From Promethearchaeota archaeon Loki_b32 (GTDB lineage Archaea > Asgardarchaeota > Lokiarchaeia > Sigyniarchaeales > SOKP01): a stretch of 64,000 nucleotides of DNA. Positions within the stretch are counted from its first letter, which is position 1. Every line of letters starts with the position of its first letter. A model generated the notes under the pieces. That model saw only the letters and a list, made by a program, of their open reading frames with translations. It was not told the origin of the DNA and made no database searches. Location: the NCBI GenBank assembly GCA_005223125.1, contig NJBH01000008.1, positions 32,001 to 96,000 on the forward strand. The letters run 5' to 3'. Positions 4,944 through 61,289 of this stretch are shown here, piece by piece. Position numbers and translations under genes: made by a program.

Positions 4944-7229
<2,286 letters not shown>

Positions 7230-31230: not shown

Positions 31231-32556
31231 ATGAGCCATAATATAATTGAAGTACAAAATCTCACTAAAATTTATGAACAAGGGAATGTATTAGCCGTTG
31301 ATGATGTGAGTTTTAATATAAAGAAAGGTGAGATATTTGCTTTATTAGGTCCAAATGGTGCTGGCAAAACTACGACTATAAGTGTACTTGCTACATTATT
31401 ATCTTCTACAAAGGGTAAAGCATTTGTAAATGATTACGATGTTAATAAAGATCCTGATAAAGTTAGAAAAAGCATAGGTATTGTTTTTCAAGAACCCTCC
31501 TTAGATGGTGAGATGAAAGGATGGGAGAATTTAGAATTACATTCAATTCTTTATGGGATGCCTAAAAAAGAGAGACAAGCTAAAATACAAGAAGTATTAA
31601 AATTAGTTGATCTTGATGATAGGGCAAATACCTTTGTAAAGAATTTTTCAGGTGGGATGAAAAGGCGTTTAGAAATCGCTCGTGGATTAATCCATGAACC
31701 AAAAGTTCTATTTTTAGATGAGCCTACTTTGGGATTAGATCCTCAAACACGCAGAAAGATATGGGATAAGATTAAAGAATTGAATAAAGGAAACTCAAAA
31801 ATTACAATCTTAATTACTACACATTACATGGAGGAGGCAGATGAGCTCGCAGATAGAATTTGTATTATGGACCATGGCAAAATTATTGCTATGGATACAT
31901 CTGAAAATCTTAAAAAGCAATTATCTGGAGATGTTATTGATATTCTATTTGAAAATGTTGAGGAAAGGTTTAGAGTTCCAATAATTATTAACCAAATAAA
32001 AGAGATTCCTGGAGTTAAAAATGTATCCTTTGGAACTGGTGAGGGAGAACAGGATATGATGTCCAATTTTCAACCTCCCCCAGGGATGCCTAATATTGAT
32101 CCGGCGATGATCCAAGCACGAATGCGAGAAGTATTATCTGACCCTAAGAAATTAATCATGGCATGGAAGCGTATGCCAATGGCTGCTGGATTGTTTCTAA
32201 ATGCCCCCTTAGCAATGAAGAAACAAATTGCAAATATGTTTGATGATAAGCTCTTAGAAGAAGTTCCAGATACAATTAAAGAAGAGATAATTAAAATAAA
32301 GAAGGGGGAATTTAAAGAAGAGGAAGAACAATTGGAACCTTCTATATCGATCTCATGTGAGAGTGGGGGAAAACAATTGCCATTAATAATTCAAAAAATT
32401 AATGAAAATGACATTAAGATAAAAAACGTGAATATGCATCAACCTACTTTAGAAGATGTATTTTTACATTATGTTGGATCGGCAATTCGGGAAGAATCTT
32501 CAAATTTTTCTAAGGATGTAAAAAAAATAATTCAAATGAAACAATTAAGGAAGTGA
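31231..32556 (+). CDS. ABC-2 (DrrA-like) ATP-binding protein with Met/Pro-rich insert
   Basis: GPNGAGKTT, FSGGMKRR, LDEPT, TTHYM, C-terminal PTLEDVFL. Confidence 0.93.
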   Translation: MSHNIIEVQNLTKIYEQGNVLAVDDVSFNIKKGEIFALLGPNGAGKTTTISVLATLLSSTKGKAFVNDYDVNKDPDKVRKSIGIVFQEPSLDGEMKGWENLELHSILYGMPKKERQAKIQEVLKLVDLDDRANTFVKNFSGGMKRRLEIARGLIHEPKVLFLDEPTLGLDPQTRRKIWDKIKELNKGNSKITILITTHYMEEADELADRICIMDHGKIIAMDTSENLKKQLSGDVIDILFENVEERFRVPIIINQIKEIPGVKNVSFGTGEGEQDMMSNFQPPPGMPNIDPAMIQARMREVLSDPKKLIMAWKRMPMAAGLFLNAPLAMKKQIANMFDDKLLEEVPDTIKEEIIKIKKGEFKEEEEQLEPSISISCESGGKQLPLIIQKINENDIKIKNVNMHQPTLEDVFLHYVGSAIREESSNFSKDVKKIIQMKQLRK

Positions 32557-55337: not shown

Positions 55338-55751
55338 GGCTTTTGATTGTTATCTTTTGTGATAATATAGATGATCATTAATAAAAAACTTGCTGTCGTT
55401 AAATATACTATTATACATACAAACTTATTTTTGTAATACGAAATTAAACATAAAAAATAGGAATGGAAAAGAAAAAGTGGCAAGAGATTTAAACAGAAAG
55501 GTTCTTTTTACACTTTATTTTGGGATTTCTGGTGATACCTTACAATTTAGTTCAATAAGAGAAGCTTCAGGAGATGGAATGGCTCATGTTTACTCAATAC
55601 GATTAGAACTATCTCTTCTTTCAAACAAAATATGTCTATAGCTAAACAGCATAGTAATTATTGAACCAAATTTAACAAAAAGTCTAATCCAATTTTTATC
55701 ATAATCAAAATTAAATTTTGAGAAAAGAGATTAAAGTGTGAAATTGAAATA

Positions 55752-55898
55752 ATGAGAAAAGGATCTACGTTTGTATGGAAGTACTTCATCATATGTTTTG
55801 CAATATCCACATTTATACTGGTACCTATTGGAACTGTCTATGCGCAAGAGAGAACACTCTACTATATCGGGTATGATTATAAGGAGCTGATAATATGA
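55752..55898 (+). pseudogene. signal-peptide-only remnant of a second toxin precursor
   Basis: Hand translation MRKGSTFVWKYFIICFAISTFILVPIGTVYA-QERTLYYIG...; upstream 55611-55690 is homologous to the precursor's upstream region 57337-57415. Confidence 0.6.
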
Positions 55899-56389
55899 AT
55901 GAAAAGGAAAATAATGTGAAAGAAATGAATAAGGAAGAAAACCATAGGAGTTTTTGGAAAAAGTTTAATGAAAAATGGTTATGGGTTAATATCGGTAGTT
56001 ATATAGTTGGAACAATATTACCTTGGTGGTTATTTTTTATCGGTATTACAAACTTGATGACAGTAATCTTTTTAACAATATCAACCCTACTAATTATACC
56101 TTTGATGTATTACTTTTTCAATTACTTTAGAAAATCAAAGCACCAAACGATTATTATCAAAATAATGTTGGTTGGATGCGGCGGATTTAGTTTAGGTATT
56201 TTTATCTGGTTTTTTATTGGTTATACATTTATTATGGCTCCTTGGGCACCTTTAAATAATTTAACTGGTGTCCTAAGACAAAGAATTTTTCTTCTACTTC
56301 TGATATTTTCATGGGGACTTGCTGCATATATAATGTATAGAATAGGTAAAAAAAGAGATTGGAGACCACCCTCCCATTTAATAAATTAA
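55895..56389 (+). CDS. small membrane protein, putative orphan immunity protein 1
   Basis: Paralog of 56734 and 58914: FWKKFNEKWLWVNIG, RKSK, APWAP, AAYIMYRIGKKRDWRP. Confidence 0.8.
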   Translation: MNEKENNVKEMNKEENHRSFWKKFNEKWLWVNIGSYIVGTILPWWLFFIGITNLMTVIFLTISTLLIIPLMYYFFNYFRKSKHQTIIIKIMLVGCGGFSLGIFIWFFIGYTFIMAPWAPLNNLTGVLRQRIFLLLLIFSWGLAAYIMYRIGKKRDWRPPSHLIN

Positions 56390-56733: not shown

Positions 56734-57204
56734 ATGAATGAAAAGGAAATTAATGTGAAAGAGAGGAATAAGAAAGAAAACCAGAAGAGTTTCTGGAAAA
56801 ATTTTAAAGAGAATTGGTTATGGGTTACAATCGGGTTTTACATAGGTATAACATCAATGGGCTGGATTGAGTATTTCAGAGGATGTTTTTCTTTAATAGA
56901 AGTAGTTCTTCCCACTTTCATAGGTCCCATTTTTCTATTCGGTATCTTCTATATTAGAAAATCAAAGGATCAAAAAGTGATAATGCGATTGATAATAGTA
57001 ATTGGTGGTGGCTTAGCTTTAGGATTTCCGATATTCATGTCCGTCAATTATATTCTTTTTGTTACATCTTGGGCTCCTTTTCATGAGATTAACGCCATAT
57101 TACGAAGAATACTTACCATCTTGGTTATATTATTATCATATGGTGGAGCAGCATACATAATGGACAAATTAGGTAAGAAGCGAGACTATAGACCGTTTTT
57201 ATAA
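56734..57204 (+). CDS. small membrane protein, putative orphan immunity protein 2
   Basis: FWKNFKENWLWVTIG, YIRKSK, SWAP, AAYIMDKLGKKRDYRPFL. Confidence 0.8.
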   Translation: MNEKEINVKERNKKENQKSFWKNFKENWLWVTIGFYIGITSMGWIEYFRGCFSLIEVVLPTFIGPIFLFGIFYIRKSKDQKVIMRLIIVIGGGLALGFPIFMSVNYILFVTSWAPFHEINAILRRILTILVILLSYGGAAYIMDKLGKKRDYRPFL

Positions 57205-57240
57205 TCTTAGAAATTATAAATAAACTTTTTTTTTTTTCAA
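57164..57240 (+). repeat. direct repeat copy 1 (about 75 bp; immunity-gene 3' end plus T-tract terminator)
   Basis: Near identical to 59323-59397. Confidence 0.85.
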
Positions 57241-57460
57241 AATATTTTAAACTAAATTTTTTTTTTTAATAAAATGAGAGACTCCTAGAAAAAGTCTTAA
57301 ACCTACCGCGACAGATGAAGATTAGGAATCAGGAATATCTCTTCTTTCAAACAAAATATTTATATAGCTAAATATCATAGTAATTACTGAAACAAACTTT
57401 ACAAAAAAGTCCAAAACAAAAATTAAAAAAAGTAAATTAAAATAAAGAGGCGAAACTAGG

Positions 57461-58879
57461 ATGAAGAAGAAATTAAAGATTAAATTTATATCAGCGATTA
57501 TTATTGGAATTATTCTATTACCTACTTGTACATTCTTCATAATCCCAACTGCTCTTGCTCAAGAGAATTCCTTTCAAAACATCTCAGTTCAAGAAGCATA
57601 TACAATGATAAAAAAGGAGGAAAATACTGAAAATCTTGTTATTTTAGATGTTAGAGATACAACCGAATTTAACTTAGGTCATTTATACGATTCTATTCTA
57701 ATACCTCTCAATGACCTTGAAGCAAGAATCGGTGAACTTGAAGATTATAAGACTTCTGAGATAATAATTTACTGTAAATCTGGTTATCGAAGTCAACAAG
57801 CAAGTGAAATTTTAGGTGAATATGGTTTTACAAAAGTATATAATATGCTTGGTGGCATTTTAGCATGGATTGATGCTGATTATCCAATTTGGACAACTTC
57901 ACATCATATTACAGTAGATGAAATAACCGATAAAAAATTTGAATTATTAATAGAACCATTTCTTTTACATTATAAAGGTTGTTCAACATGCACTGAGAAT
58001 CAAGAATGTCCTATTGAGAGTGAATCAATAAGTATAACATCTGAAACATTAGAACAAGGAGAAGATCAAATAGTTATTCTCAAAAAATATGAATTTAATG
58101 GAACAGTCTATGAATTTATTCATACTCATACTATTTTATGGAGTTATGATAAATTTACTAGTAATTATAATAAATCTGCTTACTTCATTTCAACAGAAAT
58201 TACTTCAGAAAATTTCTATTTGCAATATTATCAATTAGAATACGTAATATACCATAAGAACTATAACTTAACGATTTATACTCACCTTGAACCTTTAAAT
58301 TCAGAGATTTATAATAGTTCATTTACATATATAAAATATACTCCTGCTAACGGAAAAGCTATAACTTCAATGGAGTTTGTGCAATTCAATATGTCTGTTA
58401 TATTATCCCAACAATACGACATTTTAGCGGATATCGCGGAAGAAATGGCAGAAATATATAAAAAATCAGAAGATTTAGACCTAATGGAACTATATTATGG
58501 TTATACCAATATGGGAGAAGGAATTGGATCTCTTTCTGAATTAGTAAAAGAATGGCTTGGAGAATATGATTATCAAATTCTTGAAAGTGATGCAGTGTTA
58601 TACGATTACAGAGTACCCCCCATTAATGGTGGTGACCCTCCACCTCCACCTCCACCTCCACCTCCACCTCCACCTCCGCCTCCACCACCACCACCACTAC
58701 CATCTTTGTTAACATGTATTATTTGTATTGCGGGTTGTGAGCTAGCGGTTTTAGCAGGATGCATTATTGCATGCATTATCTATATCCCATTTTGCCCTGT
58801 TTGCGTAGTGGTAGTGGAATTATGGGAATTATTTGACCTAGGTTGTGGTTATGTTTGTGAATATATTGGTGCTTGTTAA
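57461..58879 (+). CDS. secreted rhodanese-domain precursor with Pro20 linker and halocin-C8-like Cys-rich C-terminus
   Basis: Signal peptide ending ALA-QE; LDVR...GHL...YCKSGYRS...MLGGILAW; 20 Pro; 10-Cys hydrophobic tail ending CEYIGAC. Confidence 0.8.
   Translation: MKKKLKIKFISAIIIGIILLPTCTFFIIPTALAQENSFQNISVQEAYTMIKKEENTENLVILDVRDTTEFNLGHLYDSILIPLNDLEARIGELEDYKTSEIIIYCKSGYRSQQASEILGEYGFTKVYNMLGGILAWIDADYPIWTTSHHITVDEITDKKFELLIEPFLLHYKGCSTCTENQECPIESESISITSETLEQGEDQIVILKKYEFNGTVYEFIHTHTILWSYDKFTSNYNKSAYFISTEITSENFYLQYYQLEYVIYHKNYNLTIYTHLEPLNSEIYNSSFTYIKYTPANGKAITSMEFVQFNMSVILSQQYDILADIAEEMAEIYKKSEDLDLMELYYGYTNMGEGIGSLSELVKEWLGEYDYQILESDAVLYDYRVPPINGGDPPPPPPPPPPPPPPPPPPPPLPSLLTCIICIAGCELAVLAGCIIACIIYIPFCPVCVVVVELWELFDLGCGYVCEYIGAC
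58637..58696 (+). repeat. (CCTCCA)n/(CCA)n microsatellite encoding 20 prolines
   Basis: Directly visible. Confidence 0.95.
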
Positions 58880-58913
58880 CGGATTGGTATTTGTTCTTAA
58901 TAAACTTTAAGGA

Positions 58914-59363
58914 GTGGTTATATTGAAGCTGAAAGAAAAAATCAAGAACTTTTGGAATGAGTTTAAAAAGCATTGGTTATGGGTTAATATTGGTGCATAT
59001 ATGATGATAACGATGATAAATTGGACAGGATTTTTCCTTGGCTCTATAAAATTTGAGATAGCCCTCTTAATTACACTTATATACCCCTTAATAATTCTTA
59101 CTATCTTTTACATAAGAAAATCTAAATTTGAGACAACCATTTATAAGATAGTATGGATTGTATGTGGGGGTATAGCTCTAGGATTTCCAATATGGGGTAT
59201 AATTTTTTTCGTCCTTATTGGAGCTCCTTGGGCTCCTTTATATGAAGCACATAATATTTTAAGAGGAAGCATTTCAATCCTGATTCTGGTACCAGCATAT
59301 GGTGTGGCAGCGCATTTAATGTACAAATTAGGTAAGAAGCGAGACTATAGACCGTTTTTATGA
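58914..59363 (+). CDS. small membrane protein, putative cognate immunity protein
   Basis: Starts 35 bp after the precursor stop; FWNEFKKHWLWVNIG, YIRKSK, APWAP, KLGKKRDYRPFL. Confidence 0.8.
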   Translation: MVILKLKEKIKNFWNEFKKHWLWVNIGAYMMITMINWTGFFLGSIKFEIALLITLIYPLIILTIFYIRKSKFETTIYKIVWIVCGGIALGFPIWGIIFFVLIGAPWAPLYEAHNILRGSISILILVPAYGVAAHLMYKLGKKRDYRPFL

Positions 59364-59397
59364 TCTTAGAAATTATAAATAAACTTTTTTTTTTCAA
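59323..59397 (+). repeat. direct repeat copy 2
   Basis: Near identical to 57164-57240. Confidence 0.85.
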
Positions 59398-59717: not shown

Positions 59718-61289
59718 TTAATTATTATCAACAGTTTCTCCATATCCAATTAACCGATAACGTCTATTTATTATTCTCGAAATTGCAAAGATAAAATCTT
59801 CTGCAGGACATATTGGAGGATTTAATTTAATGATAACACTGTCTTTTAAAATTTTAGTTACTGTTCCTCCTGTTTTTTCTGTACCAACGACTAATAATAA
59901 TTTTTCATTATGCTTAAGCGAATGTACTCTGAGCATCTGCTCGGAGCCAATCACCCTATCTAATAGGTTCACTTTAAATTCAATTTCATGAAGGATTTCA
60001 GGTAATGTATCTGGTTTTCCGACTAGGTTCCCTATTAAATGATCACCCTTAGTTAAAGCAGGATCTAAGTTAGTTCCTAAACCTATAAGCCCTCCAGGTT
60101 TTGCGTTATCTAGTAGGTTACTCCCTTGACTAATACTAACAACAGTAGATTTTAAAGGAATGTATTCATCTTTCACCCTTAAACCCGGTCGAATTTCTAT
60201 TTGATCTCCAATTTTAATCATTCCTTTTAACACTGAACCACCAATTACCCCACCCTTTAAATCACTTATTTCTTTCCCAGGTCTATTAATATCAAAAGAT
60301 CGTGCAATTAAAAATTGAAATTCGCCTTCAGGAAGTTTGGGGGATGGAATAATTTCTTCAAATGCTCTTATAATTAAATCTATATTTGCTCCAAATACAG
60401 CGGAAATTGGTATTATTGGAGCGTTTTCAGCAATAGTTCCCTTAATAAATTCTTTAATTTGTTGGTAATTTTCTAATGCTTGTTCTCGTGAAACCGCATC
60501 AATTTTATTTTGAATGATGATGATATTTTTTATTCCAGCAATGTGTAATGCTTCTAAATGTTCCCTCGTTTGTGGTTGAGGACATCGCTCATCAGCCGCA
60601 ATTAATAAGCAAGCTCCATCCATTAATGAGGCCCCACTTAACATTGTTGCCATAAGAATTTCATGACCAGGAGCATCAACAAATGAAATATTCCTTCTAA
60701 ATTCTAATTGTTCTTTACATTGTGGGCATAAGTAACGGGGTTGTCCTTTTTCCCTTGACTTCTCCGCTAGATAATATGTTATATATTCATCACAATTCGG
60801 ACAATATAAAATTGTGGCATTAGAATACCCTAATTTTATTGAAATTCCTCTTTCTTGCTCTTCAGAGTGTCTATCTGTCCAATCTCCTGTTAATGTTTTC
60901 ACTAATGTAGTTTTTCCGTGATCCACATGACCTACTAAACCTATATTACATTCAGCTTGTTTTTTTATTAATTCTTTAATATTTGAAGCTTTAGTTTTAG
61001 ATTTTGGTTTTGGTTTAGGTTTAGATTTTGGTTCTAGTTCTGGTTTTACTTTAGAAATAACTTTTACTTTAGATTTTGGCTCTTCTTGAGCACCAATTTC
61101 TTGATATAATTTCTTTGCATTAGTAATATATTTCTTTGCAGTAGCAGCACCCACACCTTTAATCTTTAACTTTATTAATTCATCAGGATTAACATTAGCT
61201 AATTTTGCAATGCTATCTATCCCTGCAGCTTTCATTTTATCTGCAGTAGCTTTTCCGATGCCAGCAATATCTGTTAAATCATATGACAT
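59718..61289 (-). CDS. eif2g: translation initiation factor aIF2 gamma with N-terminal HhH domain
   Basis: NIGLVGHVDHGKTT, RGISIKLGY, DAPGHE, PQPQTREH, QNKID, ARSFDINRPG, RLIGYG; extra LTDIAGIGKATA...GVGAATA plus KP-rich linker. Confidence 0.95.
   Translation of the reverse strand: MSYDLTDIAGIGKATADKMKAAGIDSIAKLANVNPDELIKLKIKGVGAATAKKYITNAKKLYQEIGAQEEPKSKVKVISKVKPELEPKSKPKPKPKSKTKASNIKELIKKQAECNIGLVGHVDHGKTTLVKTLTGDWTDRHSEEQERGISIKLGYSNATILYCPNCDEYITYYLAEKSREKGQPRYLCPQCKEQLEFRRNISFVDAPGHEILMATMLSGASLMDGACLLIAADERCPQPQTREHLEALHIAGIKNIIIIQNKIDAVSREQALENYQQIKEFIKGTIAENAPIIPISAVFGANIDLIIRAFEEIIPSPKLPEGEFQFLIARSFDINRPGKEISDLKGGVIGGSVLKGMIKIGDQIEIRPGLRVKDEYIPLKSTVVSISQGSNLLDNAKPGGLIGLGTNLDPALTKGDHLIGNLVGKPDTLPEILHEIEFKVNLLDRVIGSEQMLRVHSLKHNEKLLLVVGTEKTGGTVTKILKDSVIIKLNPPICPAEDFIFAISRIINRRYRLIGYGETVDNN

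Follow-up and report, generated by a model that had tools for sequence, protein, structure and literature searches.

The 64,000-nucleotide window analysed here (positions 32,001 to 96,000 of contig NJBH01000008.1 of Promethearchaeota archaeon Loki_b32, assembly GCA_005223125.1) carries, at 57461-58879 on the forward strand, a gene for a 472-residue precursor protein that ends in a hydrophobic, cysteine-rich tail. The open reading frame (ORF) encodes a Sec-type signal-peptide-like N-terminus (residues 1-34, 57461-57562), a rhodanese domain (residues 47-138, 57599-57874), a conserved β-rich middle domain (residues 146-385, 57896-58615), a low-complexity linker made of VPPINGGD and 20 prolines (residues 386-412, 58616-58696) and a 60-residue tail, here called type A (residues 413-472, with the stop codon 58697-58879). 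The gene for its putative cognate partner W_149, a 149-residue protein with about four transmembrane (TM) segments (58914-59363), starts 35 nt after the tail; two orphan partner genes, W_164 (164 residues, 55895-56389) and W_156 (156 residues, 56734-57204), each also encoding about four TM segments, lie upstream, and all are on the forward strand. The precursor locus is present in one copy in the host genome (4.13 Mb, 95.5% complete). As set out below, comparison with related loci indicates that tail and partner very probably form a single cassette that is exchanged between strains, the exported scaffold being conserved.

The N-terminus of the precursor reads as a Lys-rich n-region followed by a hydrophobic core and ALA-QE, while the twin-arginine motif is absent; residues 2-27 form a helix in the AlphaFold2 (AF2) model. 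This region would be expected to be cleaved as a signal peptide, and from its Sec-like character the tail is presumably exported. The rhodanese matches PF00581 (E=2e-16, 60.7 bits against a cut-off of 22.2) and its fold matches 3gk5 with a Z score of 17.7 and a root mean square deviation of 1.4 over 100 residues. Across 81 family members, conservation is 90% or more at C105, G108, R110 and S111 of the active-site loop C105-KSGYRS, and judged by this loop the rhodanese is catalytically intact. The middle domain, modelled with a predicted local distance difference test (pLDDT) score mostly above 90, consists of long antiparallel strands and two long helices. It has no Pfam match and no usable match in the ESM Atlas, and fold searches with the full-length precursor model were filled by rhodanese matches. 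Several NxS/T sequons were spotted by eye in its sequence and in the family consensus. The linker drops below a pLDDT of 50 at residues 388-404; among relatives it is a Gly/Pro segment of 0 to ~35 residues. Its poly-Pro tract (58637-58696) counts 20 residues in the window; contig L100, elsewhere 98% identical, has 22. In other relatives its place is taken by poly-Gly or a Gly/Pro mixture, or the linker is missing altogether. This repetitive DNA therefore varies in length and coincides with a recombination boundary described below.

Translation of 58697-58882 confirmed the first-pass annotation of this C-terminus as a ten-cysteine segment with a CxxC start and a C-x3-G-x-C end. The cysteines lie at residues 419, 422, 426, 434, 438, 445, 448, 462, 466 and 472, the last being the final residue of the protein, with the spacing C-x2-C-x3-C-x7-C-x3-C-x6-C-x2-C-x13-C-x3-C-x5-C, and include CxxC and CPxC motifs. 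The tail has five acidic residues, no Lys or Arg and no His; its mean hydropathy is 1.87, rising to 2.3-2.5 over residues 416-454 in 19-residue windows. This cysteine richness and hydrophobicity are far beyond chance. Cysteine accounts for 1.2% of residues in host-genome ORFs of at least 150 residues, and among 7631 ORFs of at least 60 residues this is the sole C-terminal 60-mer with at least eight cysteines and a mean hydropathy above 1; the remaining Cys-rich C-termini of the genome carry hydrophilic ferredoxin-like motifs or belong to short, probably non-coding ORFs.

Neither the tail nor the three partner proteins gave a meaningful match in Pfam, NCBIfam or PADLOC. The tail had no match among PDB sequences at E ≤ 10 (phmmer), and its scores in the ESM Atlas (0.75-0.76) were under the noise level. 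A single-sequence HMMER search of 1.84 billion representatives returned five matches, all of them members or fragments of the same family, and among these representatives there was no other architecture and no stand-alone peptide family. An archaeosortase-type sorting signal (PGF-CTERM and similar) was considered and rejected, as the tail has no NCBIfam match at E ≤ 1 and is 60 residues long, free of Lys and Arg and predicted to form three helices, not one TM segment with a basic cluster.

Searches with the precursor gave 514 homologues at E ≤ 0.001, with named sources among Bathyarchaeia, Thermoprotei and metagenome-assembled genomes (MAGs) of Nezha- and Njordarchaeota. Further family contigs come from Promethearchaeota, one Sulfolobales MAG and Nitrososphaerota, and the nearest named relatives are Promethearchaeota MAGs. 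A contig scan by rhodanese-only patterns returned 80 loci, 70 of which are irrelevant rhodaneses. The family is patchy even at close range, and its middle domain behaves as an accessory element: of 301 genomes sampled from the phylum 16 contain it, as do 3 of 21 further species of the genus. Almost all full-length relatives end in a hydrophobic, Cys-rich C-terminus of 55-80 residues, mostly with 8-14 cysteines, and these tails fall into at least seven distinct types.

The difference between body and tail is abrupt. Relative to the query, the locus L089 is 100% identical in the rhodanese and 96% in the middle domain, with a tail only 30% identical; the corresponding values for rhodanese, middle domain and tail are 95, 93 and 32% in L002, 82, 86 and 20% in L008, and 94, 66 and 25% in L003. 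DNA identity of 92-96% extends from upstream of the gene as far as 58600-58672 and is lost there, within the linker or shortly ahead of it (at 58672 in L089, which is 96.4% identical, at 58651 in L003, and at 58600 in both L002 and L008). As these end points place it, the linker is the left recombination boundary of the tail cassette. By the same sequence comparison the secreted protein is polymorphic, with the tail as its variable module, and the conserved body with a sharply bounded, diverged C-terminal module reproduces a defining feature of polymorphic toxins.

Other arrangements occur among the relatives. Fragments of the 3' end, without signal peptide or rhodanese, are found in L149, L146, L148, L145 and L010; each retains the last 80-130 residues of the middle domain, carries another tail and adjoins a gene for a small membrane protein. 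The fragment in L149 lies just downstream of a full gene, and the other four stand alone. Two family genes with differing tail types were seen in one Bathyarchaeota MAG (L010/L011) and in one Crenarchaeota MAG (L014/L015), and in L013 a further family ORF lies upstream, truncated by the start of the locus, and has its own tail followed by its own membrane-protein gene. Members of ~590-650 residues (L143, 655-2616 on the reverse strand; L144, 922-2691 on the forward strand; P0104-P0106 and P0111) end in a larger, Cys-poor and apparently β-rich domain, so that the variable end is not restricted to Cys-rich peptides.

The gene that follows the tail varies with it. W_149, which carries the motifs WLWV, RKSK, WAP and GKKRDYRPFL, is paired with the same tail in L100, L103 and L104; it is 55% identical to the partner in L004 and has 18 homologues, with a ratio of nonsynonymous to synonymous substitution rates (dN/dS) of 0.16-0.22. 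The partners of type-A and type-B tails are distinct subfamilies of one 4-TM protein, type-C tails are followed by a 65-67-residue 2-TM protein, type-D tails by a 91-92-residue 2-TM protein, and the remaining tail types by other small TM proteins. In pairwise comparison of seven Loki-type loci, the identities of tail and partner correlate with r=0.74, against 0.26 for body and partner and 0.12 for body and tail, values that overstate independence because the sequences compared are related. A co-varying cognate small gene directly downstream, also characteristic of polymorphic toxins, is thus found here with the exception of L089 and L013.

The two upstream genes resemble partners of other tails. 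W_156 is 77% identical in protein and 86% in DNA to the partner in L002, which has a diverged type-A tail, and is therefore of the L002 cognate type; it is 96.7% identical in DNA to a second partner gene in L100. W_164 is closest to the partners of type-B tails (GCFGGDPxWDC...GCC), with 50% identity to the partner in L007. The dN/dS of W_156 is 0.5-0.6, and W_164 is an intact ORF with 0.47-0.58 against cognate copies. Both lie within a 1.65-kb block bounded by an 80-nt direct repeat, whose left copy (55602-55681) is 86% identical to the right copy just upstream of the precursor gene (57328-57407), both on the forward strand; L089, otherwise 96% identical, is without this block and joins the two repeat points. 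The conserved 3' end of W_149 (59256-59394, forward strand) is repeated at 57097-57235 with 83% identity over 139 nt, and homology to L002 resumes at 59296-59395, again in the 3' end of W_149, which is likely, from these alignments, to be the right-hand recombination boundary. Orphan immunity-type genes and orphan 3' modules, as known from polymorphic toxins, are therefore both represented. An orphan of a different partner class was seen on the Promethearchaeota contig L004, where a 67-residue 2-TM gene (7013-7216, equivalent to L134 449-652) follows the 4-TM partner and is homologous to the type-C partners in L003 and L102.

To what extent the tail itself is a folded, cross-linked peptide was approached from its model and its cysteines. 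The AF2 model built with 19 type-A sequences (pLDDT 81.9) places helices at residues 416-440, 442-457 and 462-468, a hairpin with a short third helix. Fold searches of this model with Foldseek and VIA-align returned only generic helical hairpins (Z ≤ 5.9), the sole Foldseek row being a non-significant match to a saposin-like structure, the C-terminal domain of surfactant protein B (6vz0_B; E=6.2, probability 0.12, TM-score 0.45). The fold therefore does not decide between a membrane anchor and a stapled bundle. The first-pass annotation had proposed structure prediction as a check, expecting a disulfide-linked helical or saposin-like bundle; the hairpin that is predicted is, taken by itself, indistinguishable from a membrane anchor.

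The cysteine patterns are more informative. The cysteine count is even in 71 of the 81 tails, and because 8, 10, 12 and 14 are all common, not just multiples of four, pairs of cysteines fit better than four-Cys metal sites. In variants aligned to the type-A model, cysteines are lost together as 438 with 445, 426 with 462 and 434 with 448, and the members of each pair face each other in the predicted hairpin in the AF2 register. From the helix register and these paired losses, the predicted disulfides would be 438-445, 434-448, 426-462, 422-466 and 419-472; C434, C448 and C466 are the best-conserved tail residues across all types. Lys and Arg are absent from 57 of the 81 tails, and the tails are net acidic, so they are without the basic flank of an ordinary stop-transfer anchor. 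Of the earlier suggestion of a proteolytically released, disulfide-stapled helical peptide, it is the stapled helix that gains support, from the even counts, the paired losses and the AF2 model.

The first-pass annotation also likened the tail to mature halocin C8, and the features it named for that peptide are accurate. From the halocin C8 family we extracted 26 genuine domains for a hidden Markov model (HMM) and alignment of our own; 19 of the 26 have ten cysteines, nearly all begin with CxxC, and many end in C-x3-G-x-C (for example CNRAGLC, CTQIGYC and CIVAGYC). The domain of L107 is essentially the Natrinema HalC8 sequence. As a control, the family model TIGR04449 was run on 401 Halobacteriota genomes, 22 of which yielded a total of 27 domains above cut-off. 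With the same model, neither the tail nor the whole precursor gave a match at E ≤ 1, the whole host genome gave nothing at E ≤ 10, and ten tails spanning all types reached at best 8.4 bits (E=4.4) against the cut-off of 24 bits. With our own HMM, and a composition correction of 20 bits, the window tail came to -3.1 bits; the top score among 95 family tails was 13.6 bits. When 17 type-A tails were compared with the halocin alignment profile to profile (hhalign), the probability was 0.05% globally and 0.7% locally. The halocin C8 cysteine skeleton, C-x2-C-x7-C-x3-C-x7-C-x11..13-C-x7-C-x7..8-C-x7..8-C-x5..7-C, coincides with the window tail only in sub-patterns and at both ends, and the registers do not align across the domain. 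Given the absence of HMM or profile similarity and the differing cysteine registers, membership of the tail in the halocin C8 family is not supported by its sequence. What stands of the proposed likeness is composition and layout, at the extreme C-terminus of an exported precursor; profile similarity and cysteine spacing do not bear it out.

The tail and halocin C8 (ProC8 of Natrinema sp. AS7092; TIGR04449) are alike in that a hydrophobic ten-Cys domain of ~55-75 residues closes the exported precursor at its extreme C-terminus; the tail ends its ORF, and genuine halocin domains have 0-16 residues after them. They are also alike in that a small ORF with predicted TM segments follows in most of the halocin loci sampled (L105-L131, from Halobacteriota genomes): in ~17 of 26, a same-strand putative ORF with 2-4 predicted TM segments starts within 700 nt after the stop codon. 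If these ORFs are genes, membrane-protein immunity may be common in the halocin C8 family, besides HalI. The tail differs in its higher mean hydropathy (1.87, where the family median is 0.94) and in being without basic residues; its precursor has a Sec-like signal in place of Tat (twin-arginine translocation), and a rhodanese and middle domain in place of HalI; and the host is an anaerobic Asgard archaeon, not a haloarchaeon. In ProC8, which is exported by Tat, immunity resides in the same polypeptide (bioRxiv 10.64898/2026.07.27.741052), whereas the candidate immunity function here would be a separate membrane protein. A census by TIGR04449 in the same study counted 82 archaeal genomes with halocin C8 homologues, and 26 bacterial ones (bioRxiv 10.64898/2026.07.27.741052); since this tail is not matched by TIGR04449, pipelines relying on that model miss such loci.

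Taken together, these observations are best explained by the tail being a disulfide-stapled helical antagonistic effector with an immunity-like partner, analogous to halocin C8 without belonging to its family, a reading that draws on sequence, model and analogy and that we regard as evenly poised between right and wrong. In the family as compared here, the conserved exported body is followed, beyond its Gly/Pro linker, by any of numerous tails that are unrelated or strongly diverged. According to this reading, the tail would fold as a helical hairpin with a third helix, stapled by five disulfides. It might act on the membrane of competitors or stay embedded in the membrane of the producer, where the cognate partner would neutralise it; the extra, orphan partner genes would protect against the tails of neighbours. 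The antagonistic role gains indirect support from the cassette polymorphism, the co-varying downstream membrane proteins and the orphan partner genes. The chemistry that closes the cysteine pairs, whether oxidising or persulfide-based, may come from the tethered rhodanese, a role suggested because no DsbA, DsbB or VKOR was found above its curated cut-off in the 95.5%-complete host genome, the only VKOR-like match scoring 17.8 bits (C44:158161-158262). A passage of PMC5403849, citing Chng et al. 2012, states that the periplasmic rhodanese PspE, together with DsbC, partly replaces DsbA/DsbB in E. coli; taken from that passage, the precedent makes it plausible that a tethered rhodanese acts in cis on the cysteine pairs of the tail.

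Several points weigh against an antagonistic, disulfide-stapled effector. Ten of the 81 tails have an odd number of cysteines, and the missing Dsb genes could instead mean that this anaerobe makes no extracytoplasmic disulfides. A processing site is not conserved among the relatives, whose linkers range down from ~35 residues to none. The hydrophobicity of the tail (1.87, with a first helix of 25 residues) would be compatible with a plain membrane anchor, and its model resembles generic hairpins at Z scores no higher than 5.9. Co-variation with a membrane partner, besides being overstated by relatedness, would arise from an obligate complex too; L089, with its type-E tail, and L013 have no convincing downstream membrane partner; and the orphan partners show moderate constraint only (dN/dS ~0.5). 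The wider proposal, of an archaeocin system of Asgard and TACK archaea in which a rhodanese in cis staples an exchangeable membrane-active peptide, with immunity from small membrane proteins and switching of cassettes, is tentative and, in our estimate, rather unlikely to hold in full.

The alternative that deserves most attention takes the tail as the Cys-rich helical-hairpin anchor of a surface sulfurtransferase, with the downstream 4-TM protein as its membrane subunit and a possible role in polysulfide or thiosulfate handling or in a thiol relay. Conservation of the rhodanese active site across phyla would be expected of such an enzyme, and its rhodanese matches structurally both Sud (1qxn, Z 12.5), a periplasmic polysulfide transferase, and the membrane-anchored rhodanese YgaP (5hbl, Z 13.8); a hydrophobic stretch of 38 residues, the hairpin-like fold matches and the operon-like arrangement of precursor and W_149, 35 nt apart, all suit it. 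It gives no reason, however, for swapping between strains whose bodies are 96-100% identical, and leaves unexplained the orphan partners and the 3' fragments without signal peptide or rhodanese. The missing positively charged flank, the even cysteine counts with paired losses, the patchy distribution even inside the genus and the replacement of the tail by a soluble β-rich domain in some members also speak against a mere anchor, and we consider it possible but doubtful. Swapping, co-variation and orphans would be accounted for if tail and partner formed a non-lethal pair for self or kin recognition, with a logic like that of Proteus IdsD/IdsE, marking identity at Asgard cell contacts. Cell-to-cell contacts are typical of syntrophic Asgard archaea, and both variable parts are membrane-embedded. 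Nothing here separates such a pair from toxin and immunity protein; yet it is in toxin systems that orphan partners and silent 3' cassettes are most typically seen, the Pfam scan of the protein recognised no adhesion domain, and recognition alone seems to us distinctly unlikely.

Two further explanations concern what the tail is rather than what it does. It might truly belong to the halocin C8/S8 superfamily, as a member that has diverged very far; its ten cysteines, CxxC start, C-x7-C-x3-C-x6/7-C core, C-x3-G-x-C end and extreme C-terminal position would allow this. Many genuine loci also have a small TM gene after the domain, and sequence methods can fail on short Cys-rich domains. With TIGR04449, our own HMM and hhalign all without support, cysteine registers that do not align over the whole domain and a Sec-like rather than a Tat signal, we hold such membership to be very improbable. 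Least probable is a metal- or iron-sulfur-binding domain, or a site with multiple lipid or thioether modifications. The extreme cysteine content, the CxxC and CPxC motifs, the anaerobic host and the Dsb genes not found there would be in keeping with it, but tails with 10 or 14 cysteines are no rarer than tails with 8 or 12, which argues for pairs over quartets; the query tail has no His and its context is strongly hydrophobic, unlike the ferredoxin-like or probably non-coding Cys-rich C-termini elsewhere in the genome, and there is no metal-cluster match in Pfam or NCBIfam.

Returning to the stapled effector with its immunity-like partner, its genetic organisation has parallels in systems of other kinds. 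Bacterial polymorphic toxins with orphan cassettes (CdiA-CT/CdiI, Rhs, MafB) are said to have been described by Zhang et al. in 2012 in Biol Direct. Like them, the family studied here has a conserved N-terminal body, a sharply bounded variable C-terminal module and a cognate small gene downstream, together with orphan partner genes and 3' fragments that retain a conserved stretch for recombination. Unlike them, its body is a 385-residue Sec-exported rhodanese protein and not a filament, a YD shell or a substrate of type 5, 6 or 7 secretion (T5/T6/T7), its modules are tiny, hydrophobic, Cys-rich and helical where theirs are nucleases or deaminases, its partners are multi-TM proteins, and the orphans of this window precede the active gene. 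The cassette principle is already known, and it is the components and the scaffold that are new. Pore-forming colicins and class II bacteriocins combine a hydrophobic helical-hairpin effector with an adjacent immunity protein of 2-4 TM segments, an arrangement resembling the predicted hairpin beside a gene for a 2-4-TM protein; they have no sequence or fold match to the tail, whose hairpin would be stapled by cysteines and is carried, as an exchangeable cassette, on a rhodanese scaffold. With YgaP, PspE and Wolinella Sud, the precursor has the rhodanese fold and catalytic loop in common. YgaP ends in a two-helix membrane hairpin; none of the three is known to have a polymorphic Cys-rich tail, a 240-residue β-rich middle domain or a co-varying partner gene.

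In the literature searched we found no description of a family of rhodanese-fused Cys-rich tails. Tails, partners and middle domain, all without a Pfam or NCBIfam family, are here joined to a sulfur-transfer enzyme scaffold, and the tail is organised like halocin C8 while falling outside that family, which makes organisation and family membership two separate questions. Little is known about competition or recognition among Asgard archaea, the closest prokaryotic relatives of eukaryotes, and the locus offers a testable candidate bearing the population-genetic signature of a weapon-and-antidote or identity system. If the rhodanese does close the cysteine pairs, it would constitute a Dsb-independent route to extracytoplasmic cross-links in strict anaerobes. 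If the archaeocin proposal as a whole were true, disulfide or persulfide staples would be installed in anaerobes without Dsb, and strains would fight or recognise each other by switching cassettes.

Beyond the partner gene, the reverse strand at 59718-61289 carries an aIF2-gamma-like gene with an N-terminal extension of ~105 residues preceding the GTPase G1 motif; the extension contains two helix-hairpin-helix-like repeats (GIGKATADKM and GVGAATAKKY) and a Lys/Pro-rich spacer.

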